A stretch of 63,677 nucleotides of DNA, filler included, from Asterionella formosa (lineage: Eukaryota), in NCBI GenBank assembly GCA_002256025.1. It is 21 parts of 21 records of this genome, joined end to end, with 100 filler letters (N's around TTAATTAATTAA, not from the genome) between each part and the next. Parts side by side here need not be neighbours in the genome. Positions count along the whole stretch, not along the records: positions 51,183 to 52,881 come from NKIB01001456.1; 20 more parts are not named here. One strand, written 5' to 3'. Positions 7,926 through 57,264 of this stretch are shown here, one piece after another; position 1 is the first letter of the stretch, and each line of letters opens with the position of its first letter. Position numbers and translations under genes: made by a program. Under the pieces are notes generated by a model, which saw nothing but the letters and a program-made list of their open reading frames with translations, had not been told where the DNA came from and did not search any database.

Positions 7926-7990
7926 CCAGGTACCAGGGTACAGTACTCTCGTACCAGGTACCTGGTACCAGTACCAGGTACCCCGTAGAA

Positions 7991-18268: not shown

Positions 18269-18970
18269 GGCTGGGGATGATGATGACAGGGAATGATAAT
18301 CTATGTCGGAGGTATGGAAAGGTGACTTCAAGTATCCATTCGATGCACAAGTCGACAAATACGTAAATACCATCGTAACATGCTACGGTAACATTGTCGT
18401 CAGCACGTCAACCAAAACCAACTAGGTACCGGTACCAGGGTCCCTAATGCTCACGGCACGACAGGGGGAGTCCATCTGGTTTTCTACAACGACCAGGGCT
18501 TGTGATTACGTCAGCAGTCATTCATGTTCCTCCTCCTACGGTACCTGGTACCAGTACCAGGTAACAACCGGTAGACTACCAGGTAGTATCTTGATCTACA
18601 GAAAGTCGCAATATATTTTGTACTGGTGGCACCTGGTACCAGCAGGCACTCAATTTTCCAGTTAAAATCAATTTGAGTCCTGTCTGTGCTTTTGTATGAT
18701 GGTGTCCAACCTGGTAGACTACCTGGTACCTGGTGGAAGTGGAGTACCTGGGACTCCTGGATAATGCATTTGTGCAGGAGCTGTTTCAATCACCCCATGG
18801 AAACTGGTACCATGGTACGTGTCGAACCATCGTGATGGGACTCATCCTTCTGATAGTTCAGCTATCAGCCATCCTTATCACAATTATCTCCGGTGCGGAT
18901 TGAACGAGATTGTCGACGAATCTATAGTTTGCAACATACAAATTCCATAGAAAAACAAGCATCATCCACC

Positions 18971-33001: not shown

Positions 33002-33396
33002 AATGATGATGAAACACAGTCGATTCTCCTGTTAATTTATGATATTTATTCTTGATATGTTACTCTCTCGCTAGAGCCACACTCAATCGTCGTGTTTCTT
33101 TCGAAAAATGATTGGGACGCTTTGTTTATTCGTTTTTTGTTCGGAGTCGTTGCTGGATAGTACATATAATTTTTTTGTATTACGACCAAGCCAAGAATCG
33201 TTCTGATGATCACATGCACCGCGGTGTACCGGTATTTATTTTGTTTTATTTGTTGGCTGTGGCTGATCGTACATACGTACGTACCGGTATATTCATTCAG
33301 CTGAGACCACAGCCATTCGGGCATCCATGCATGGGTCTTGATCAGAACCATTTTCTGGCCATATGATACGGTAAGCGGTGGGGTGCCAGATACCAG

Positions 33397-33484
33397 CAAG
33401 TTGCGGTCATTTTGCTTAAACTAACATTTCAATCTAGGATAAAAATAGCTAAATCTTTAGTTTCAGCAAAATTACCGCAACTTG
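33397..33484. mobile_element. 88-bp MITE, TIR CAAGTTGCGGT, CAG target duplication
   Basis: cag|CAAGTTGCGGTCATTTTGCT...AGCAAAATTACCGCAACTTG|cag. Confidence 0.85.
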
Positions 33485-33727
33485 CAGGTGCCTGGTACCG
33501 GGGTGTTGCGAAGTCACACTTAGTATCAGCTACATATTCATCACCGAATATTTTTATGATGTGTTATGCTCCTGCAAGGAGAAACAAAGTCGTCGAGAAG
33601 AAATTTCATAGTGGAATAAGGGACATTGACTGGCTGAACAGAATCAAGCTCATATCCTTTCAATCCCCTTCTATGCAATCAAGAAAGTGTCAAAGCTAAA
33701 ATACCGTAGCTCCTTTCCAGCATGTAC

Positions 33728-36682: not shown

Positions 36683-37920
36683 NNNNNNNNNNNNNNNNNN
36701 NNNNNNNNNNNNNNNNNNNNNNNNNNTTAATTAATTAANNNNNNNNNNNNNNNNNNNNNNNNNNNNNNNNNNNNNNNNNNNNTTAACTACATTGCATTAG
36801 CTACTCTTAGTGGTCACCACTGTCAAATATTTTACATGGTTTCATGTATGTATAACATGTGTACCAGTATTTATACTAAATTTTTATATGGATGGTGTCT
36901 TTTGCTATTAATTTTGGTGTCCGATGACGTCATGAAACCTATCCCTATCCCCAAATTTGAGCGGATTAGGGTTAGGGTTTCACAATATCTCCACAACCGG
37001 TTTTATTACATCACTAAGCGTGCTCCACAAAAACCGAAAAGTACGTGGAGATATTAAGAGGTTTACAGTATATTTTACCAATGGTGGCCGCCCTTCAACC
37101 TGTGCTTGCAGGCCAGCCAGACGCCCAGTCACGATAACACGTCAGGCGTGACTGGAAGAGAACCTGAATTTGGTGTTTGCATCCGTGTATGTATACGTAT
37201 CACACCCCTTTAACGGGGTACAGGTACCAGGACCAGGTATTTACGATACCCGTATGGTAGTTGCTTATCATCATATGTATTCAAAAGAACATTCGCTCGT
37301 TCAAATTTTATTGGGTTCCTTTACAGAGTTTACCTGTAGCTACCTGGTCAACTGTTTTTTTCTTCTCAATGACCCATCGACTACCAGGTACCGGGATTTC
37401 TGATACTACCCACTAGGTGCAAAGTACTTCCTGGCACCATCACTACCAGCAACGACAGTTCAATCCGTGCTCGCGGAGTATACCGTTAGATGCTTACCGG
37501 CAGATTTCATCAGTCCTTACCGAGACATACTACCAGGTACCAGGTAGGTACCGGTACCTGGTACCCAAGTAACAGTAGACTACCCGGAGTAATTCTGTGG
37601 CTGCATGGCATTTGCGAAATACAGTATTCTGCTGCAATTACAGATATTTAATTATGGACCACGGCAACTACCGGTACATAGCATAAAATATTCTTACCAC
37701 GTGCGTCGTGTGCATACCGGTATTTATACATAAATGGATGTAAATACCGGTTTCTCTCTACAAGCAAATATTGACCCTTTGGATCATGCACTGTGTACCG
37801 ATAAGCACTAGCGGGCACTCCATCATACCGGTATGTACCGGTATTTGAAAATATTTTGTATATTGAAGCAAACACCAGCCAAGCAAGAATGATGCCGGTA
37901 CAAGGAGACAGGTGAACCTG

Positions 37921-37985
37921 CAAGTTGCGGTCATTTGGCTTACCGGTAAATAAAGTTTTAGTTTCAGCACAATTACCGCAACTTG
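37921..37985. mobile_element. 65-bp deleted copy of the CAAGTTGCGGT MITE, CTG target duplication
   Basis: ctg|CAAGTTGCGGTCATTT...AATTACCGCAACTTG|ctg. Confidence 0.85.
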
Positions 37986-38583
37986 CTGGTTACCAGTGTG
38001 GTACCTGGTACAAGGTATCATGTACCAACAACCGGCACTCCCTCCCAGTTGCCTGGTACCTGGTACCAGGTACCAGGTACCTGGTAAATACCCGAGGGAG
38101 AATCGGTAGTCCGTACTTACGTATAACCCAACAAGCGTACCAGTATAAGTCCCGTCTACCGTTACGAGGAAGGATGATGATGTGTTGGGTTTAGTATGTA
38201 CTGTACTCGAACAACAAGGTTTCCTCATAAATATCATACTCTGTTCCTGACTCGATGCATAAAATTGGCATTTAGGCGACCACGCATTACATCAGCCAGG
38301 CCAGTCTCGTCATCGAGCCCTCCGCGAACCAAACAAGCGTGTCCTGTAGTCTACCGGTAGTCACCTCAATCGCAGCTTAAGAGAGTTTACAAGACAGCAG
38401 ATTGTAATTATCTTCATCATTGCTTAATTTTAATAGTTCGCCATAAAATTGGCCATCATGGAAGAGTCATTGCCAGAACAGTCNNNNNNNNNNNNNNNNN
38501 NNNNNNNNNNNNNNNNNNNNNNNNNNNTTAATTAATTAANNNNNNNNNNNNNNNNNNNNNNNNNNNNNNNNNNNNNNNNNNNN

Positions 38584-40072
38584 TCGTTTTGCAACCATGA
38601 AAGCCGAAATTGAAGGAACAACGAGGAAGGTCTCGGTCACTCTGGTGAAGGAAGAGTTTAGATATTTTGTTGAACAACTGGTCAAACAGTTTTCGATTGG
38701 AATTACCCTTCACTGTTTTGGGGCGCCCGATCATATAAGAATATAGCTCCATGAGGTGATCCATTATTCCTTCTTGAATGGAATGGAGTTTTTCAGGAGG
38801 AACGTGCCCATTAACACCAAGAGGATCGCCACCAAAACACAACTGATACCAAAGGGATAGATGAATCTTTGGCTCACATTATCCAATAAATCTTTTATGC
38901 CACGGATTAATAGTTCTTCGTAATCAATCTGACCTACAGGACTGCATTCATGAGATGGATTGTCCGTTTGATCAAACGGACAATCACATTCACGACACAT
39001 TCTGGCAGTCTTTAGATATGTTTTCTTTCGTCCGCATTGTCCATCTAAACCCTCAGCATCACCGAGAATTAGACCAACCGGAACTTTCACATTAAGTGTA
39101 AATTGATTGCCTCCGAAATTGAAAATGTGTTTGAATCCACCAGCTTGTTGGACATTCTTGACCCCCTCAAGAAATATACCAAGTGACATTAGGACAGGCT
39201 CCATGGTGTACTTTCCTTTTTCAACCGTGTGTGTCATGTCAATAAAGAACATGAGTGGAACAAGGAAGTCCTTTGGCTGAGAACATAAATATTCATGGGC
39301 ATCTATCCACCAGGTACCAGTGTGAAATTCGGATCTGACACTGGTGGGTTGTGGAGCTTTACACGGATTGACGAAATCAAATGACACATTTTGTGGTGAC
39401 ATTAGTGTGTCGTCATTTGTCAAGAGATTCTTAACCTGAGCCATGAAATCAAAACATACAACATCAACCAGTTTTCCATCATGCAATATGGCCTGTTTCA
39501 CCTGGGGAGTTAATTCAGTCATGTTAAATCGGTTTTGAAATTCTTTCAGAACAAGATTCAAAAATGAATCCAGCTTCCTGAGCTGTGCTGCAGAAACTCA
39601 TGATTTGATCATACATATAAAGAGGAGAACGGGTGCCGAGCAAAAGAGTAAGCAGTCGAGACTTCATAACATCGCCAACTGAGAATGGTATACCAGGATT
39701 GGCGGAGGAAAACCTAATCCCTGTGGTGCTCAGGACTGGAATAGTATTGGTTTCATCCTGTACCACTATTTCGCTTGTATTTTCTTCATCTTCTTTTTGA
39801 TCAATGTCATATATATTGGTATGATCGCCAAAATGTAGTGTTTGAAAATGTCAAATTTTGGCCCTTTTCTTTAATGACGACGAAAAGTCATCAGCAGGTG
39901 ATGGTGGAGATTGATGAAGTCCATCATATTCTTCCTGACCGTCGTCTGGACCAGTTTCTGGTTTACGAAACAACTCAGCAGCTGTTTCGCATTCGGGGCT
40001 ATGTGCGTAATGACGGTGATGGGAAACAAATGGAACCTTACCACATATCAAACAGCAATCGTCGTTGTTCAT
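38584..40072 (-). pseudogene. Plavaka-like transposase, N-terminal part, frameshifted
   Basis: N-terminal CxxC..HxxxxxxC finger, EFHTGTWW, LMFFIDMTH, MEPVLMSLG, LILGDAEGLD, CRECDCP, HQSDRDLPR spread over four overlapping ORFs. Confidence 0.75.
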
Positions 40073-43620: not shown

Positions 43621-46336
43621 TGTGATGTCACCATTTTGACCCTTCACTGCCATCACACCCACCTACTACCAGTACCTGTCGTAATATAATCATATTATAC
43701 CGGCAAACACAAGACAGGTAACAGTGATATAATAGAGTCAAACAAAATAGACATGCGGGTTATTCTACTATTAGCAATTGAATAGTCTTAGCTAAGGGAC
43801 CATAAAAGTGAAGTTATATGATGCTGTATGAAACCAATCAAGGCGAACGAGATAACAACAAGGGTAACAATGATGATGACAATGNNNNNNNNNNNNNNNN
43901 NNNNNNNNNNNNNNNNNNNNNNNNNNNNTTAATTAATTAANNNNNNNNNNNNNNNNNNNNNNNNNNNNNNNNNNNNNNNNNNNNCATGCTTGAGGATGTG
44001 CTTGAGTTGATCTTTGAATGATAGTGACTCTCGAAGTAAGTCAAAACCAAGCGAATCAATTTTTTTTGTTCTTTTCATTGTTCAACTCAAACACTTGTTG
44101 CCACGCATTGTCGATCAAGCAAAATGACAATCAACCTCAAATCTTCCTTGGCGGAAACCTCTTGATCTTCTGGATGAGTTATCATGAGTTTTAGGAGTAT
44201 CTTTAAGGTCTTGAGACAGGCAGCGAAGTCGATTATAAACATGTTGAAATGTTTTATTGAGTAATATCATGGCATCCAGCCACTGTTATTGACTCTCAGA
44301 GATATTATGAAGAGGGTAATCTTCCAGCCACATTACTGTGACTTTCTTGTTGAGACTGTTATGGTGGGACTGAGCATCTGAGTGTATTGCAACGCTCATC
44401 CAGTCAGACAAGACGATATCTGTGAGTCATCTTTTGTAGCAGTAGATGAACAAGCAAGGAATCTGCTGGACTGAAGATATATGTGTTAGCCATATCACAG
44501 GATTTACTGAAATCAATAAACAAGCTTCCCCTGAGCGTCAATTGATCATATCTTTTCTGTAAGACTCCAAATGTCGACCTGGCTTGTAAGGATACACAAA
44601 GAAGTTTGAATCTTGATGTTTAGTATGTTGTTATCCTTCATCAATGGGACCACTGGAACTTGAGAGGACATCAACAATATTAATTCTAATTGGACTCTTT
44701 TTGAATTCAAAGTGAAGTATCTTACTAGAAGTAGTAGTATTTGTTGAATATATGAGCTTATTTGTTAATCCTTGTGTGTAACTCGTTCTCCAAGTCGACA
44801 CCAAAGTATACAATGAGGGTTAGTCGAGTTCTCTCATTATTGAGTTCTTATACATATATGATATAACACTAACCCTATATACATCTGTATTGATGCGCAA
44901 GATCGCTCACCAGGTACCTGGTATGCTCTCTGCCTACACATCATATTTTATTTTAACAATCGCTCATGAATCAAACATGAGAAATTTCCCATTATTACCA
45001 TGATAACAAACCATGATAAAATGATTACCTGTATTAATTTCGATTTTGTACAACAACTGCTTAACACTTTTATCAGTTACTTTGATAGTATACATGTGTC
45101 CCTAGCAAGTAGTGAAAGAAACGAAAACGTAGCTTTGATATTCATCGCGAAATACTGGTAGCTAAAAATAGAAAATCGGCGGAAGCAAGGCAGCGCTCGA
45201 CTGACCGGTAGGGAAATGCATATAAACTACCGGTAGGAGATTTCTGGAATAAGGTATCTTGAAACTCAATATTGTGATTGGAGGGAAAAAAAACAATTCC
45301 AACCCCCTTCCCCCCCAATCATAGTAGCACTACCAGTATGCTGCTTGATAACTGCCTCAAGTGTAAGTGTAGCCCAGAAGATTGTCCAAAGATGATACTA
45401 TAAAGTATAAGAGTATTTGTTCGACTAGCTTACTGTTTGTTTTTGTGCACAACCAGGAAATTAAAAAGTCAAACTGTAGTACAGGTCAAAATTGTGGTTA
45501 TCAAAATTTCATGTTAATTTAGACAATATTTTCATTACAATAAACTATTTTTGATGCAACAGTTCTGAATGTTTAAGATTTCTTTATTGTCTTCTCATGA
45601 CAATGGTCCAGAATCTTGACCTCACTTTGTACCAGAACAACAACAAACTCATGACAAAAATAAATTCAATTCCTTGGATTACAANNNNNNNNNNNNNNNN
45701 NNNNNNNNNNNNNNNNNNNNNNNNNNNNTTAATTAATTAANNNNNNNNNNNNNNNNNNNNNNNNNNNNNNNNNNNNNNNNNNNNTTGTCAGCTGCTCATC
45801 CTCTGGTTCTTTTTCTATATTGTACTTGCTAGAGTTATCGCTGTAGACTATTTGTAGCTGCTCCGAGACGGAGAAGGCCATTGTGGCACATCTCAATTTC
45901 GATTCACTACGGAGACATGCAATGCTCAACGATGCTCAACAAGTACCAACGGTGCTTTATTTCCAATCTGGCAGGCTATTGTAATCTCTACAATCAACAA
46001 TGACTTAATTATGTGTCTACAACATCAACTACTACTACGTGTGCTGAATTCTACAGTGTGAATCGTCCTCTTGCATGTGTTATTCTTTGCCAGTTCAGAT
46101 CAAAGAAATATGTCGGAGCGGAAAAAATAATAAGTGAATCGGAATTGGCGACTCTTTCGTTCATTATATGGTGAAAGCAGCATAATATTGCGGCAGAGCA
46201 GCATAATTTCGCTTTTAAACTGTTGCGATGGCTAGTTGGTCAACATATATTGTCACGAACACACATAATTATTGGTGTGATCACATAATTATTCGATAAG
46301 TGAAATAAATTTTTGTTTAACCCGAATAAATTAGGG

Positions 46337-46415
46337 AAAAAGTAGCATAATATTTCAAAAAAGTAACATAATATTTTAGAAAAGTAACATAATATTTTAA
46401 AAAAGTAGCATAAAT
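46337..46415. repeat. 21-bp tandem repeat (AAAAGTAACATAATATTTTAA-like, ~3.5 units)
   Basis: Read directly from the sequence; resembles subterminal repeats of a TIR element. Confidence 0.8.
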
Positions 46416-46499
46416 ACGTCACTTTACACATAAATTCGAAAAAGTGCCGTAAACGGCGTCTTAGATGGGAGTGGAACCAGGCGACAAATACATGTGAAG

Positions 46500-47484
46500 T
46501 CTCAATGCACCATCGATGTACGTCATAACTTTCTTGGCTGAACCAGGAATTATAACAAACCATGCCCTCGAAAATTATTTGGATGTCTTTTATTTCCTGC
46601 ATTGACATTCCAACCTTATCCTTGCAAAGCTTGATTCCGGCGTCTGTAGCCATTACCAAACAAGCAACAAGCATTACTCCAACGGTTTCATTTCCTGTTA
46701 TCTTTGGAAAACATCCATGGAATCCACCATGAAAATTGCACCTTGGCATATCCCGATCGCTTTGATGTTGCATCATCTTTGACACTTTTATGAATAATGT
46801 ATCAAAAGCGGTTCTATTTTTCAACCCCTGAGCAGAGGTAACAGTGCCGAACTTTACCGAGAACAGAAGAATGAGATAACGCATCATTCCCTCATGTATT
46901 GAGTGCAACTTTTCAGGAGGGCAATGGCCATTGATTCCCAATGGATCTCCACCAAAATCCAGCGCATACCAGCAAGGTGTAATAAAACGTTGTGACACGG
47001 CATCCATTAGTGTTTTGTCGTTCATTCCTAATAGGGCAGCATAACCCACTTGCCCTACTGGAGAGCATTTGATTGATGGTTTATCTAATTTGTCGTATGA
47101 ACAATCACATTCCCGACAGAGACGAAAAGTTTTCAGGTAATATTTAATCCTCCCACACTGATTGTCCAATCCTTCCGCATCGCCAAGCACCAACCCGACC
47201 GGTACCTTTACAACCAGGCTATGCTGTTTGCCATGGAAATTGAAATTATACTTGAAGCCACCAGATTTCTGAGTCTCTTGAACTCCCGACAATATAATTG
47301 CCAAAATTGTGTGATAATCCTTGCACTTATCGTCGGCAGTCATATTTTTGTTCAATGCAAGACTCTGACCATCAAGTTTTGGTATTAGACCAAGGGGGCG
47401 CCAAGCAATGACTTTGTTCCTTACAGTTGTACGGAAAATCCCAAGAGAAAACAAAACTGGCTCCATGGTGAATTTAGAATTTTC
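46500..47484 (-). CDS. Plavaka-like transposase core, partial
   Basis: MEPVLFSLG, WRPLGLIP, YHTILAIIL, LVLGDAEGLD, CRECDC, LHSIHEG, QSDRDMPR. Homology ends near 46500, where the ORF runs into 21-bp tandem repeats. Confidence 0.8.
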
Positions 47485-49383: not shown

Positions 49384-51082
49384 GGATGGCATATTGAGTC
49401 ATACACTTCACGAAAAGCCAACCTTGTCGGGTTTGATGCAAAATCTTCCCGTAAAACTGGAATGCCCATTGTCAGTGCGGTAACAGTAGTGGAGACACAA
49501 GGGAATAAATACCTTCTCCGTGTACATGAAGCTGTGTATAATCAAGGCAGTCCTACCACCCTCCTCTCAGAGTTTCAGTTACGAGAACATGACTGCATTG
49601 TTGATTCTATTTCCACTAAGCACCCAACAAGCATACCAGGCAGGAAAGGAGGACAGTGTTTTCTTCCCCGTCCTCATGTCTACATCCCTTTTATCATTAA
49701 TGGAGGTCTTATGACATTCAGACACCGGTTACCAACAGAACAAGAATTAACATCATTGCCACCTATCGATATCACAGCAGACTTCCCTTGGGATCCTAAC
49801 TCACACTACAGTGACCAATGCTTATCATTGCTGCCATTACAGCAAGATATATCAGTCCAGGTACATAACATTGTACACATGAAAGACGATAAACTCTGCA
49901 CCTCACCATATGTACTCTTGGACTCTACCCTCGATACATACAAGAACCCTTTGGGCTTGGTATTAAACCCAAATCTTGCAGCTGAGAAACCTAACAAAAT
50001 GTGCCATGCTCTCCTTACTACTCGCATAGTCAATCCAAACATTGATGCCCTCAGACCATACCTAGGATTCCAATCAACTGAGGTCATTTCCCATACCTTG
50101 GCCAACACAACACAATTGGCTAAAGCTATATACCGGTATCCCCTTCGACGCCACATTAAATCCCGCTTTCCTCAAGCTAATCGACCACGCCTCAAAGAGA
50201 AGGTAGCAACTGATACATTCTTTGCCAACTGCCGCGACATTACTGGTGCTACTTGTGCACAGGGTTTTTATGGAATCACTTCCCACGTTATCAATGTATA
50301 TGGTATGCCTTCCGAAAACGGTGCCCCCGATGCGTACAACGATTTCCTGCGGCATGAAGGTTGCCCCACCATCTTACGTCGAGATAATTCACGTGTCCAA
50401 TCTGGCTTACGGTTCCAACAACTCAACCGTTTGTATCTGATTGGGGATGAATATACGGAGCCATACCATCCACAGCAGAACATGGCTGAGTTACGGGCAG
50501 TTAAATGGTTGAAGCAACACACCCAATTGCTACTTGATCGAACAGGAGCACCTCCTATGCTTTGGTTGCTAGCATCACAGTACCTTGCTGCTTTACACAA
50601 CCATAGTGCTGATGAGACCCTCAATTGGGCGATTCCCCTCACACTACGTCATGGAGACACCCCTGATATCTCAAAATTCTTACACTTCCAGTTTTATGAG
50701 AAAGTGTATTACTTAGACTACCAAGAGGTATATCCAGATACTAAAGAAAAGCCTGGGTACTGGGTTGGAATTACAGACAATGTGGGGGACATCCTGACCT
50801 ACAAAATCCTCACTGACCATACACAACAAGTGCTACACCGCAGTGTTGTCCGACCATGTGACCCGGCCCACCCCAATCACCGCATACAGTTTAATCCCAT
50901 GAACAATCCTGCGGTAGCCAACACAACTCCTCTTGCCCCCTTACCTGCTTTACATTTCTACTCCACTCCCACCCGTGTCGAACCCACCATTTCCCGCCAG
51001 CGCAAAAGGACACCTGGTGTTACAATACCGACTTCGAGGGGAGCAATAACGTGTGAGAGTCCAATACGCACAGCACAAGAGA
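49384..51082 (+). mobile_element. Copia (CoDi-like) pol fragment with integrase, copy 1
   Basis: Open across the whole contig; VATDTFF, RRDNS, EPYHPQQNMAE, GDTPDIS, WVGITDNVGD. Confidence 0.9.
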
Positions 51083-51182: not shown

Positions 51183-52881
51183 TCATACCGGTCAACTTCT
51201 CGTATTCGCGTAGAAGTTGCATACGAAATTTCTGCATTTGCACCTCCCAGTATTCACCATACTTGTCCTCTTTCCAAGCATATTCCACTCCTAGGTGTTT
51301 CTGTAGAATACCCTGCTCGGTAATATTGAAATCTTCCTTGATAACATTTTTCATATACCGGTACTCCACTGCACTTGGAGTCCCACATACAATACCGTCA
51401 TCCACGTAATTAACAAGTAGACCATCAATTTGTCCATCCTTGTTCCGGTGCATAAATAACATAGGGTCGATCTTGCTCTTCGTCATACCTGGTTTATTGG
51501 TGACACATTTCGCAAACGTCCTGGACCAGCATCGTGGAGCTTGTACTATCCCGTACATAGCCTTCACAAGCTTGCAAACATGTGTATCGGAATCGACTCC
51601 GATCAAACCTTGAGGGGGCTCAATATAAATGTCCTCATCGACGTCAGCATTTAGAAATGCTGCTTCCACATCAATAGCCTCCGCTCGCCAACCGTTGTAC
51701 ATCGTCACTGCGAGTACCGTTTTGATTGTCGCATCGCTTGCAACTGGAGCAAATGTCTCAGTAAAATCGACACCTGGGATTTGCTCATATCCCTTCACGA
51801 CCAATCTTGCCTTGTAAATGGTCTTCCCGGTTAACACATCTTCTTTAATTCGAAACACCCATCTCGTTTTTAGTGTTCGCTTCTTAACAGTATCACGTTT
51901 GATAACTTTCCACACTCCTCTCGACTGGAAGTTTTCATATTCTTTGTTGATCGCCTTGATCCACTCTTTCTTGTCTGGTCTTGCCATTGCTTCATCGTAG
52001 CTTGTTGGTAATCCTGGATCAGAAGCCAGACTTGCGTTGTACACAAAATTCACCTGTGTATTCTTCGTAATTTCCTTCATGTTATCCTCCTCGATAACAC
52101 CAGGCATCTCAGTATCTCCTGAAAATTTCACAATTTTCGTACTCGTAGGATTGAACGATGAGTCCAATCTTCGCATTTCACGTGCCAACTTCGCTTGCTT
52201 AGACTGAGCACTTTCCGCACGTTTAGCCTTCACAATTGGGGTATTGGTACCTGTAACCTCGTATTTCGTAGTACCATCTATCTTAGTTGATTGTTCAGTT
52301 TTCCTCCCCAATTCTTGCTTGTCATCATCTTCATCTTCATTATCGGACACTTCTCGAGGTTCGAACTCGTCGTAAAAATCGTCATGTAACTCTTCATTAT
52401 CTTCTCGTACTGATATCTCCGTATCCTGTTGGTTGGTGACTGGCTTGAACATTTTCTCTAGTTGTTTGGAGTTCTCACCTGCGTCATCACATCGGACAAA
52501 TTTAGTCGTATGTCCTGCACCTGCAAGTTTTGTGAGTAACGCTCCAATGACAGTTCCGATGTCACTTTTCTTCTTAATAAAAAAACTCCAGCATTTCCTT
52601 GTATACCGGTAATCGTCCACGGCCATCACCCAATACTGATTTCCCACAGCGGATTTTGCGTAGGGTCCGCTAATATCAATAAACAGTCTTTCTCCTGGTG
52701 TCGTAGCCTTCTCTTGCGTCATCTTGGGTACTGCGCGTGCTTTCGCCTTGGCTGCTGCGCATCCTGCGCACACCTGTAAATTTCCAATAAGTTTCCACCC
52801 AAATAATTTCGATGTCTCACGAAGACATTTTTCCCCCACATGTCCAAGCATTTCATGCGCTTCATTTATTTCCACAATCAC
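51183..52881 (-). mobile_element. Copia pol fragment: GAG-pre-integrase, internally deleted integrase, RT
   Basis: HEMLGH..CAGC, FIDISGP, VRCDDAGE, KARLVVKGYEQIPGVDFTETFAP, DVEAAFL, MYGIVQAPR, YVDD. Confidence 0.92.
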
Positions 52882-52981
52882 NNNNNNNNNNNNNNNNNNN
52901 NNNNNNNNNNNNNNNNNNNNNNNNNTTAATTAATTAANNNNNNNNNNNNNNNNNNNNNNNNNNNNNNNNNNNNNNNNNNNN

Positions 52982-54680
52982 TCTCTTGTGCTGTGCGTAT
53001 TGGACTCTCACACGTTATTGCTCCCCTCGAAGTCGGTATTGTAACACCAGGTGTCCTTTTGCGCTGGCGGGAAATGGTGGGTTCGACACGGGTGGGAGTG
53101 GAGTAGAACTGTAAAGCAGGTAAGGGGGCAAGAGGAGTTGTGTTGGCTACCGCAGGATTGTTCATGGGATTAAACTGTATGCGGTGATTGGGGTGGGCCG
53201 GGTCACATGGTCGGACAACACTGCGGTGTAGCACTTGTTGTGTATGGTCAGTGAGGATTTTGTAGGCCAGGATGTCCCCCACATTGTCTGCAATTCCAAC
53301 CCAGTACACAGGCTTTTCTTTAGTATCTGGATATACCTCTTGGTAGTCTAAGTAATACACTTTCTCATAAAACTGGAAGTGTAAGAATTTTGAGATATCA
53401 GGGGTGTCTCCATGACGTAGTGTGAGGGGAATCGCCCAATTGAGGGTCTCATCAGCACTATGGTTGTGTAAAGCAGCAAGGTACTGTGATGCTAGCAACC
53501 AAAGCATAGGAGGTGTTCCTGTTCGATCAAGTAGCAATTGGGTGTGTTGCTTCAACCATTTAACTGCCCGTAACTCAGCCATGTTCTGCTGTGGATGGTA
53601 TGGCTCCGTATATTCATCCCCAATCAGATACAAACGGTTGAGTTGTTGGAACCGTAAGCCAGATTGGACACGTGAATTCTCTCGACGTAAGATGGTGGGG
53701 CAACCTTCATGCCGCAGGAAATCGTTGTACGCATCGGGGGCACCGTTTTCGGAAGGCATACCATATACATTGATAACGTGGGAAGTGATTCCATAAAAAA
53801 CCTGTGCACAAGTAGCACCAGTAATGTCGCGGCAGTTGGCAAAGAATGTATCAGTTGCTACCTTCTCTTTGAGGCGTGGTCGATTAGCTTGAGGAAAGCG
53901 GGATTTAATGTGGCGTCGAAGGGGATACCGGTATATAGCTTTAGCCAATTGTGTTGTGTTGGCCAAGGTATGGGAAATGACCTCAGTTGATTGGAATCCT
54001 AGGTATGGTCTGAGGGCATCAATGTTTGGATTGACTATGCGAGTAGTAAGGAGAGCATGGCACATTTTGTTAGGTTTCTCAGCTGCAAGATTTGGGTTTA
54101 ATACCAAGCCCAAAGGGTTCTTGTATGTATCGAGGGTAGAGTCCAAGAGTACATATGGTGAGGTGCAGAGTTTATCGTCTTTCATGTGTACAATGTTATG
54201 TACCTGGACTGATATATCTTGCTGTAATGGCAGCAATGATAAGCATTGGTCACTGTAGTGTGAGTTAGGATCCCAAGGGAAGTCTGCTGTGATATCGATA
54301 GGTGGCAATGATGTTAATTCTTGTTCTGTTGGTAACCGGTGTCTGAATGTCATAAGACCTCCATTAATGATAAAAGGGATGTAGACATGAGGACGGGGAA
54401 GAAAACACTGTCCTCCTTTCCTGCCTGGTATGCTTGTTGGGTGCTTAGTGGAAATAGAATCAACAATGCAGTCATGTTCTCGTAACTGAAACTCTGAGAG
54501 GAGGGTGGTAGGACTGCCTTGATTATACACAGCTTCATGTACACGGAGAAGGTATTTATTCCCTTGTGTCTCCACTACTGTTACCGCACTGACAATGGGC
54601 ATTCCAGTTTTACGGGAAGATTTTGCATCAAACCCGACAAGGTTGGCTTTTCGTGAAGTGTATGACTCAATATGCCATCC
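52982..54680 (-). mobile_element. Copia integrase fragment, copy 2 (near-identical to copy 1)
   Basis: Same 1699-bp boundaries with a few SNPs, including RRDNS->RRENS at a probable catalytic Asp. Confidence 0.9.
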
Positions 54681-54780: not shown

Positions 54781-56479
54781 TCTCTTGTGCTGTGCGTATT
54801 GGACTCTCACACGTTATTGCTCCCCTCGAAGTCGGTATTGTAACACCAGGTGTCCTTTTGCGCTGGCGGGAAATGGTGGGTTCGACACGGGTGGGAGTGG
54901 AGTAGAACTGCAAAGCAGGTAAGGGGGCAAGAGGAGTTGTGTTGGCTACCGCAGGATTGTTCATGGGATTAAACTGTATGCGGTGATTGGGGTGGGCCGG
55001 GTCACATGGTCGGACAACACTGCGGTGTAGCACTTGTTGTGTATGGTCAGTGAGGATTTTGTAGGTCAGGATGTCCCCCACATTGTCTGTAATTCCAACC
55101 CAGTACCCAGGCTTTTCTTTAGTATCTGGATATACCTCTTGGTAGTCTAGGTAATACACTTTCTCATAAAACTGGAAGTGTAAGAATTTTGAGATATCAG
55201 GGGTGTCTCCATGACGTAGTGTGAGGGGAATCGCCCAATTGAGGGTCTCATCAGCACTATGGTTGTGTAAAGCAGCAAGGTACTGTGATGCTAGCAACCA
55301 AAGCATAGGAGGTGCTCCTGTTCGATCAAGTAGCAATTGGGTGTGTTGCTTCAACCATTTAACTGCCCGTAACTCAGCCATGTTCTGCTGTGGATGGTAT
55401 GGCTCCGTATATTCATCCCCAATCAGATACAAACGGTTGAGTTGTTGGAACCGTAAGCCAGATTGGACACGTGAATTATCTCGACGTAAGATGGTGGGGC
55501 AACCTTCATGCCGCAGGAAATCGTTGTACGCATCGGGGGCACCGTTTTCGGAAGGCATACCATATACATTGATAACGTGGGAAGTGATTCCATAAAAAAC
55601 CTGTGCACAAGTAGCACCAGTAATGTCGCGGCAGTTGGCAAAGAATGTATCAGTTGCTACCTTCTCTTTGAGGCGTGGTCGATTAGCTTGAGGAAAGCGG
55701 GATTTAATGTGGCGTCGAAGGGGATACCGGTATATAGCTTTAGCCAATTGTGTTGTGTTGGCCAAGGTATGGGAAATGACCTCAGTTGATTGGAATCCTA
55801 GGTATGGTCTGAGGGCATCAATGTTTGGATTGACTATGCGAGTAGTAAGGAGAGCATGGCACATTTTGTTAGGTTTCTCAGCTGCAAGATTTGGGTTTAA
55901 TACCAAGCCCAAAGGGTTCTTGTATGTATCGAGGGTAGAGTCCAAGAGTACATATGGTGAGGTGCAGAGTTTATCGTCTTTCATGTGTACAATGTTATGT
56001 ACCTGGACTGATATATCTTGCTGTAATGGCAGCAATGATAAGCATTGGTCACTGTAGTGTGAGTTAGGATCCCAAGGGAAGTCTGCTGTGATATCGATAG
56101 GTGGCAATGATGTTAATTCTTGTTCTGTTGGTAACCGGTGTCTGAATGTCATAAGACCTCCATTAATGATAAAAGGGATGTAGACATGAGGACGGGGAAG
56201 AAAACACTGTCCTCCTTTCCTGCCTGGTATGCTTGTTGGGTGCTTAGTGGAAATAGAATCAACAATGCAGTCATGTTCTCGTAACTGAAACTCTGAGAGG
56301 AGGGTGGTAGGACTGCCTTGATTATACACAGCTTCATGTACACGGAGAAGGTATTTATTCCCTTGTGTCTCCACTACTGTTACCGCACTGACAATGGGCA
56401 TTCCAGTTTTACGGGAAGATTTTGCATCAAACCCGACAAGGTTGGCTTTTCGTGAAGTGTATGACTCAATATGCCATCC
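54781..56479 (-). mobile_element. Copia integrase fragment, copy 3
   Basis: Same 1699-bp boundaries with a few SNPs. Confidence 0.9.
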
Positions 56480-56677
56480 NNNNNNNNNNNNNNNNNNNNN
56501 NNNNNNNNNNNNNNNNNNNNNNNTTAATTAATTAANNNNNNNNNNNNNNNNNNNNNNNNNNNNNNNNNNNNNNNNNNNNACCGTCCCCCTTCCTTGGCAG
56601 TGCTTATTAATTATGTACTCCGCATAGCACAAACCGTCTTTTAATTAATGTTAACTATGAAATACAGTTACCTGTGA

Positions 56678-56764
56678 AAGTTGCGGTAATTTTGCTGAAA
56701 CCAAAGATTTAGCTGTTTTTATCTCAGATTAAAATGTTAGTTTAAGCAAAATGACCGTAACTTG
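56678..56764. mobile_element. CAAGTTGCGGT MITE copy in reverse orientation
   Basis: Reverse-complement match to 33397-33484; flanks tacctg(tg)...ctggtacc. Confidence 0.8.
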
Positions 56765-57264
56765 CTGGTACCTGGCACCAGTGGGGTAGGAACCCTTGTA
56801 CTCCGCAACTGGTAGGAGTACCAGGTACTCCTACTGTACATGGGAGGGAGTTGTACCAGGTACTAGGTACCAGGTACCAGTTCCGATCAGGCGTTGGTTG
56901 TTGGCTTCGCTCGTACCGCCGGTATAGGAAATACTCCTACATACCAGATAATAAATAAGTACGCACGGAACTAACATCAACCATCCATACTCATGATGGG
57001 GGAAGCGGACCCACAGCTGCAGGCGCATGAAGCATTATATTGTTGGTGGTGCGTGGTAAACCACCTTCAGGCGAGCGAAGCCAGCAGCGACAAAAATACA
57101 TCATCACCCGCGGCCCTTGCTTCGGTTTAGCTCTATAACAGGAAGCAACAGATTCCCCACACCATCCACCGCCCCGCCATCTCCATTTCTTGACACTAAC
57201 ATTATTCTTTAGATCTTGTTGTTGTTATTGTGAAATCCCGCGTATATACTCCACCTACAAGACT

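Follow-up and report, generated by a model that had tools for sequence, protein, structure and literature searches.

Insertions of TA-CCGG-TA in a copia pol frame of the diatom Asterionella formosa as probable excision footprints of pogo-type transposons

The stretch of Asterionella formosa DNA analyzed in the present study (63,677 nucleotides, filler included; hereafter, the window) contains a copia pol frame in which the word TACCGGTA occurs twice. The preliminary description of this frame regarded both words as 6-bp in-frame insertions left by a TA-targeting element that had inserted and re-excised, and proposed that the word is actively written into this genome. The locus raises the questions of whether these words were gained as insertions, what left them, and whether the other copies of a word that is unusually abundant in this genome share their origin. 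Our results make it highly probable that each TA-CCGG-TA word is the scar of an excised pogo-type cut-and-paste transposon, a known mechanism on an unusual scale.

The copia pol frame and its two insertions

The features of the locus are listed in Table 1. The frame lies in a stand-alone 1,699-bp contig (C1456), which holds the whole ORF, ends within pol, and has assembly spacers on both sides. Since it stands alone between spacers, its neighbors in the window are not its genomic neighbors. The nearest cluster of a window protein consists mostly of Bacillariophyta (score 0.94, with recognition slightly below the threshold), and freshwater or algal metagenomes make up most of the sequencing runs in which this DNA occurs. 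The 566-codon open frame was identified as copia pol by its match to RVT_2 in Pfam, and the order of the domains, integrase and then RVT_2-type reverse transcriptase, is that of Ty1/copia. The integrase was recognized by motifs that we take to be characteristic of it; Pfam returned no integrase match for the window copy, which carries a 483-bp deletion. With this portion of the core missing, the window copy probably lacks a functional integrase. At least 64 matches to the pol fragment are present in the assembly, a lower bound since 40 of 291 candidates were scored. A different in-frame integrase deletion of 630 bp, found in L004, L006, L028, and L030 (with L014 nearby), starts exactly before the TA at 52604; its junction has a 3-bp microhomology, and the deletion in the four copies is possibly one inherited event. 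Judging from the two deletions, many young copia copies look non-autonomous.

Table 1. Coordinates of the features of the copia pol contig
Feature	Position in the window	Strand	Basis or occurrence
Ty1/copia pol fragment (integrase zinc finger and core start, spacer, reverse transcriptase); entire C1456	51183..52881	-	ORF, Pfam
RVT_2 reverse transcriptase domain, residues 323-538 of P0001	51268..51915	-	E 9e-44
Probable TA-CCGG-TA scar, reverse transcriptase, just past YVDD, RY added	51356..51363		10/23 spanning copies
483-bp in-frame integrase-core deletion, junction on 10-bp near-direct repeat; common to L007	52454..52463	-	
Probable TA-CCGG-TA scar, integrase region, RY added after VDDY; private to window copy	52604..52611		1/18 spanning copies
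Assembly spacer, N runs around TTAATTAATTAA	51083..51182		
Second assembly spacer	52882-52981		

Thirty loci of the copia family were fetched, 18 of which span the site at 52604 and 23 the site at 51356. In the window copy, the word at each site is a 6-bp insertion at a single TA, and in the phase used the six added bases encode Arg-Tyr at both, so that the frame reads VDDY-RY-TRKCW and SAVEY-RY-MKN. CCGGTA was present at 52604 in the window copy only; the single TA was found in 14 copies, TA-CC-TA in two (L022 and L025), and another 3-bp change in one (L020). At 51356, CCGGTA was absent from 13 copies. The polarity of the paralogues at both sites establishes two 6-bp in-frame insertions with RY as an extra dipeptide, as the preliminary description had claimed. 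The spacing on the YVDD side, which it had judged to be two residues too long, was also confirmed: the RY-bearing reverse transcriptase segment has a spacing of 38 between Y/H-VDD and the conserved LG, vs. 36 in all 21 other distinct segments, including those of other copia families. Its expectation that most copies lack exactly CCGGTA was borne out, with the correction that the insertion at 51356 is common to 10 copies. The 6-bp gain keeps the frame, and the copia ORF therefore remains open with an extra RY. By themselves, the two sites belong to one partly deleted retrotransposon copy and are of minor importance.

Nine of the RY-bearing copies at 51356 show 0-2 differences in 939 bases, although their contigs are mostly short and without flanks, so that they may not count as nine separate insertions. 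The tenth, L012, differs by 25-27, and at three diagnostic columns, which lie to the left and right of the insertion, it retains the older state. A single RY clade was rejected (p-AU 0.004). The word was thus apparently gained twice at this site; the data fit both an independent insertion into this TA in L012 and a short patch moved by recombination.

The copy L029, without the insertion at 51356, has one mismatch from the window copy. The closest copy without the insertion at 52604, L007, shares the 483-bp deletion and has seven differences over approximately 1,270 bp. Since L007 and L029 are near-identical to the window copy and yet insertion-free, both insertions are very recent, within about 0.1-0.6% divergence. 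Of the earlier proposal of active writing, this recency, as distinct from ongoing activity, is what the data show.

Both TAs sit in TATA. Counting TA-CC-TA at 52604, four events fell on two of 223 TAs, the probability of which is approximately 6e-5 (calculated by hand) when targeting is uniform and the four are taken as independent. Both TAs were apparently hit repeatedly and look like preferred targets.

Abundance of the word and the spectrum of insertions

There are 20 copies of TACCGGTA in the window. The 68.4-Mb assembly contains 28,528 copies vs. 1,718 of the reversed control word (16.6-fold). In a 155-kb sample that was not chosen by motif, 46 copies were observed vs. 3.1 expected under an order-3 Markov model, a 15-fold enrichment; TA-CCG-TA was enriched 2.5-fold in the same sample, and TA-CC-TA was not enriched (54 vs. 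51). TACCWGGTA exceeded TA-CCGG-TA with an enrichment of 30-fold (62 vs. 2.1), which CCG ends do not account for. GGTACCW units are stacked at window positions 7952-7987, 18542-18585, 37531-37563, and 38057-38086, and TACCWGGTA indels are mostly tandem gains within such stacks.

To obtain the indel spectrum, 291 sequences (904 kb, counting overlapping loci) from repeats that were picked by search and not at random were aligned all against all. Among 2,051 distinct indels, 523 were polarized as insertions, for which we required that most partners, and no fewer than two, lack the added bases. TA-CCGG-TA accounted for 8 of the 26 polarized 6-bp insertions, and every CCGG filler was framed by TA. 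The other TA-framed fillers among the 523 were CC (three rows, two events), CA/TG (two), CAG/CTG (one), CCAG (one), CCCGG (one), and CCAGG (one), with none for CCATGG. The excess of CCGGTA insertions at TA that had been predicted was thus found. In contrast, CCWGG and CCATGG insertions at isolated TAs were rare in our data (one and zero polarized, respectively). CpG changes were over-represented in old copies (6-13 of 19-45 mismatches), and, given these changes, the CCAG and CTG fillers may be decayed CCGG and CCG.

A second retroelement-like family occupies contigs 49385-51082, 52982-54680, and 54781-56479, which are 99-100% identical. Its TACCGGTA, at 50131, is present in 12 of 12 covering copies and is not polarized. 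No Pfam match was obtained for this stretch, and none of the 20 indels of this second LTR family (window 49385-51082) was of the CC type.

Pogo-type families and the origin of the word

A profile search returned 93 DDE_1 matches in the assembly. Family A is 2.46 kb long and has ends CCGTAAAACC..., terminal repeats of about 21 bp, and a 421-residue frame with a DDE_1 catalytic domain over the cut-off (E 1.1e-21). Its catalytic residues (D203, D321, and D357) form a DD35D triad. A BrkDBD match remained below the cut-off (E 0.0067), and HTH_Tnp_Tc5 was not listed for family A at E 0.1. We counted 166 family A terminal-repeat ends in the assembly, 800-bp internal-deletion forms among them, vs. 0 for the control. 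Nine copies were 99.4-100% identical over 1,955 bp, eight of which had different flanks. Family B starts with CCGTATACTT; its first five bases and its DD35D spacing, which was 35 in three copies, are those of family A. The ends of both pogo-type families are CCG...CGG, and family C starts with CAGTG. A second frame of 145 codons lies in family A on the strand opposite to the transposase (L051:2286-2720 region).

TA precedes 87 of 105 family A and B ends, and a comparison of filled with paralogous empty repeat copies revealed that the TA is duplicated on insertion; terminal inverted repeats are thus combined with a TA duplication, as in pogo elements. The filler CCGG corresponds to the terminal bases of these resident TA-duplicating families. 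The CCG...CGG ends on pogo-type DD35D elements also revise the earlier suggestion of a TA-targeting element with CC(A)...(T)GG termini: TA-duplicating elements with CC...GG ends exist, but the termini found are not CCA...TGG. Family A itself carries the CCGG word or a one-base variant, from which its most divergent copy is free. Eight of the 105 family A and B ends (L079, L090, L091, L233, and L240) read TA-C-CCG, which is one base longer.

Element and scar were found at the same TA in different copies of a dispersed repeat. This TA carries a family A end in one copy (L250/L289), is empty in 118, and reads TA-CCGG-TA in L256 and TA-CTG-TA in L255 and L257, which are near-identical to each other. 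Since the filled, empty, and L256 forms are paralogous repeat copies approximately 87% alike with outer flanks that do not match, the trio points to shared targeting or descent and not to an observed excision event. Only one end of the element was found at this TA. A neighboring control TA of this repeat had no such scar, and a second TA occupied by family A had no CC-type scar and two other insertions. In another repeat, one sub-unit contains family A, and a scar marks the homologous TA in the type of sub-unit next to it. When the flanking bases of 247 motifs were compared with those of 87 element ends, they fitted at positions -1 to -4 (p 0.13-0.7), where the motifs differ from ordinary TAs, and deviated at -5 and -7 (p 0.006 and 0.008; eight positions tested).

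The polarity of the copia insertions, the indel spectrum, and the matching resident elements support the excision-footprint interpretation of the preliminary description. We propose the following course of events. On insertion, the element targets a TA, which becomes duplicated, as observed at filled vs. empty sites. In a later excision, staggered cuts would leave terminal bases on each flank, as is established for Tc1/mariner. Three-nucleotide CCG overhangs could then pair via their self-complementary CG and, after fill-in, yield TA-C-CG-G-TA with a net gain of 6 bp. Alternatively, two filled 2-nt CC overhangs joined blunt would generate the same word. The absence of a TA-CC-TA excess together with the 2.5-fold enrichment of TA-CCG-TA leans towards 3-nt overhangs, while the two TA-CC-TA insertion events fit 2-nt overhangs. 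The genome-wide excess would have been built by repeated hopping of a modest number of copies followed by end-joining repair; approximately 28,000 words vs. approximately 80-90 family A copies would require a long history of hopping. From a few polarized events, we infer the same origin for all 28,528 words.

The words may instead be mostly footprints of another, possibly extinct, TA-targeting element with CC...GG ends, such as CCA or CCT, which would also generate TACCWGGTA, with families A and B being minor contributors. The 30-fold enrichment of CCWGG speaks for such an element, as do the flanks at -5 and -7, which are unlike those of family A and B ends and suggest that these families may not be the sole or main source. 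Furthermore, a genome search with DDE_3 (PF13358) gave no match, and yet family A passes the DDE_3 cut-off in a direct scan; this search can therefore miss transposases, and the mariner families PF01359 and PF01498 lay outside it. Nevertheless, the 50 DDE_1 loci examined had three terminal types, namely, CCG, CCG, and CAG. A terminal-repeat scan of 20 further DDE_1 loci returned only families B and C again, with many loci lacking detectable ends, and no element emerged when the window was scanned for terminal repeats of the CC...GG type, which yielded motif clusters and copies of the second retroelement. Since a CCGG scar also occurs at a TA that family A occupies in a paralogue, and the family A burst is matched in age by the two copia scars, we consider another element to be an unlikely main source.

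We regard as very unlikely a hit-and-run process in which repair or a transposase writes CCGG at TA without a full cycle, either by abortive integration or by templated end-joining at TATA breaks. The ratio of words to elements is very high, both copia sites were apparently hit more than once among the 223 TAs, a filled allele at the same locus was not seen, and the 52604 TA is precisely where the 630-bp deletion of four copies starts, all of which such a process would accommodate. However, the filler matches the ends of resident elements and the TA is always duplicated, neither site is adjoined by a CCGG template, and the 630-bp junction, with its microhomology, may reflect one inherited event.

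Slippage, selection for a protein-binding motif, and an assembly artifact scarcely deserve credence: although the word is palindromic and clustered in non-coding DNA, and the similar TACATGTA has been read as a transcription-factor site in Phytophthora (accessible text of PMC3520976), all three are refuted as the origin of both copia sites by paralogue polarity, CCGG is not copied from adjacent sequence, the insertions lie within transposon coding regions even in copies with stops and frameshifts, selection may retain promoter scars and cannot create them, one insertion is common to 10 contigs, and the motif at window 27670 is covered by a contig from an independent run (run X4) that has a single gap letter over 2,838 bp.

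Known footprints and the wider record of insertions

Excision by a pogo-type transposon agrees with what has been described for related elements. Tc1/mariner transposases make 2- or 3-nt staggered cuts and leave terminal bases between two TAs (bioRxiv 10.1101/659086; PMC7913693; PMC5224488, in their accessible parts). The footprints of Sleeping Beauty are TA-C(A/T)G-TA and shorter variants (bioRxiv 10.1101/659086; PMC5224488), and those of Tc1 include taCATGta (as cited in PMC3520976) and a +4 scar (PMC13148408). The marks in A. formosa resemble these in that a few bases matching element termini are placed between two copies of the TA, and the net gain is likewise within 4-7 bp. In contrast to the footprints in assays, the 4-nt CCGG dominates over 2- and 3-nt fillers, and the marks are fixed and inherited, at approximately one per 2.4 kb, and not rare products.

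Among pogo elements, the features of which were taken from the available text of PMC7386202, Passer (DD35D) leaves footprints of 0-4 bp (PMC9976928) and has been reported from stramenopiles (PMC7386202; PMC9976928). Family A is likened to Passer by features alone: DDE_1, DD35D, the 421-residue frame, short terminal repeats, TA duplication, a length of approximately 2.4 kb, and the weak Brinker-type match. It differs in that HTH_Tnp_Tc5 was undetected and in the 145-codon frame on the other strand. Fot and Fot-like elements are likewise DD35D.

In Phytophthora, motif-1, TACATGTA, lies upstream of 12,070 genes, and the accessible text of the report rejects a Tc1 footprint origin for its abundance and conservation (PMC3520976). 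It shares with the word in A. formosa its abundance in the genome of a stramenopile, its structure of an 8-bp palindrome framed by TA, and the form of a known footprint; however, polarity and a matching element have been shown for the diatom word, from A. formosa data alone. The A. formosa genome suggests that abundance is not an argument against a footprint origin, including that of TACATGTA as treated in the accessible portion of PMC3520976. In the main text of the open-access literature, as distinct from figures and supplements, we found no report of TACCGGTA or of footprints in diatoms. Footprints are usually met a few at a time in assays, whereas here a single word is present approximately 28,000 times, can be polarized, and matches a young resident transposon. 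The scar word thus registers earlier hopping that goes unnoticed when surviving copies are counted, and it is a mutagen that leaves the reading frame intact. It also provides a simple way of testing over-represented palindromes that have been filed as transcription-factor sites.

TA-CCGG-TA was not the largest class of small insertions. XY-(C or G)-XY, in which XY is any dinucleotide, comprised 184 of the 228 polarized 3-bp insertions, and XY-GC-XY comprised 64 of the 104 polarized 4-bp insertions vs. seven with CG. These classes were seen in all fetched repeats (e.g., L001-L030 and L111-L132), and they resemble what an element that duplicates 2 bp would leave behind. We speculate, tentatively and with some doubt, that small insertions in this diatom arise mainly as transposase scars: pogo-type TA-CCGG-TA together with the commoner XY-(C/G)-XY and XY-GC-XY from an element with a 2-bp duplication. 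They would be numerous enough to set word frequencies and to add in-frame residues inherited by a spreading retrotransposon lineage, and TA-framed palindromes regarded as promoter motifs in other stramenopiles, such as TACATGTA of Phytophthora, would have the same origin.

Plavaka-like transposase frames are present on the minus strand at window positions 38767-39597 and 46240-47484 (E 2.3e-5 and 0.015, both under the Pfam cut-off), and a Plavaka-like element is a candidate source of the XY-(C/G)-XY class. A 90-bp MITE, taken to have G...C ends, was considered as the cause of this class and dropped; its flanks are better interpreted as an element with CAAG...CTTG termini that duplicates 3 bp, CWG, at the center of TAC-CWG-GTA. 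A CWG duplication is also described, in the accessible text of PMC4482050, for NuwaI elements, which usually start with GGG and have been reported from animals. The palindromic MITE occurs at window positions 33396-33485, 37920-37986, and 56676-56765, and 382 exact ends were found in the assembly.
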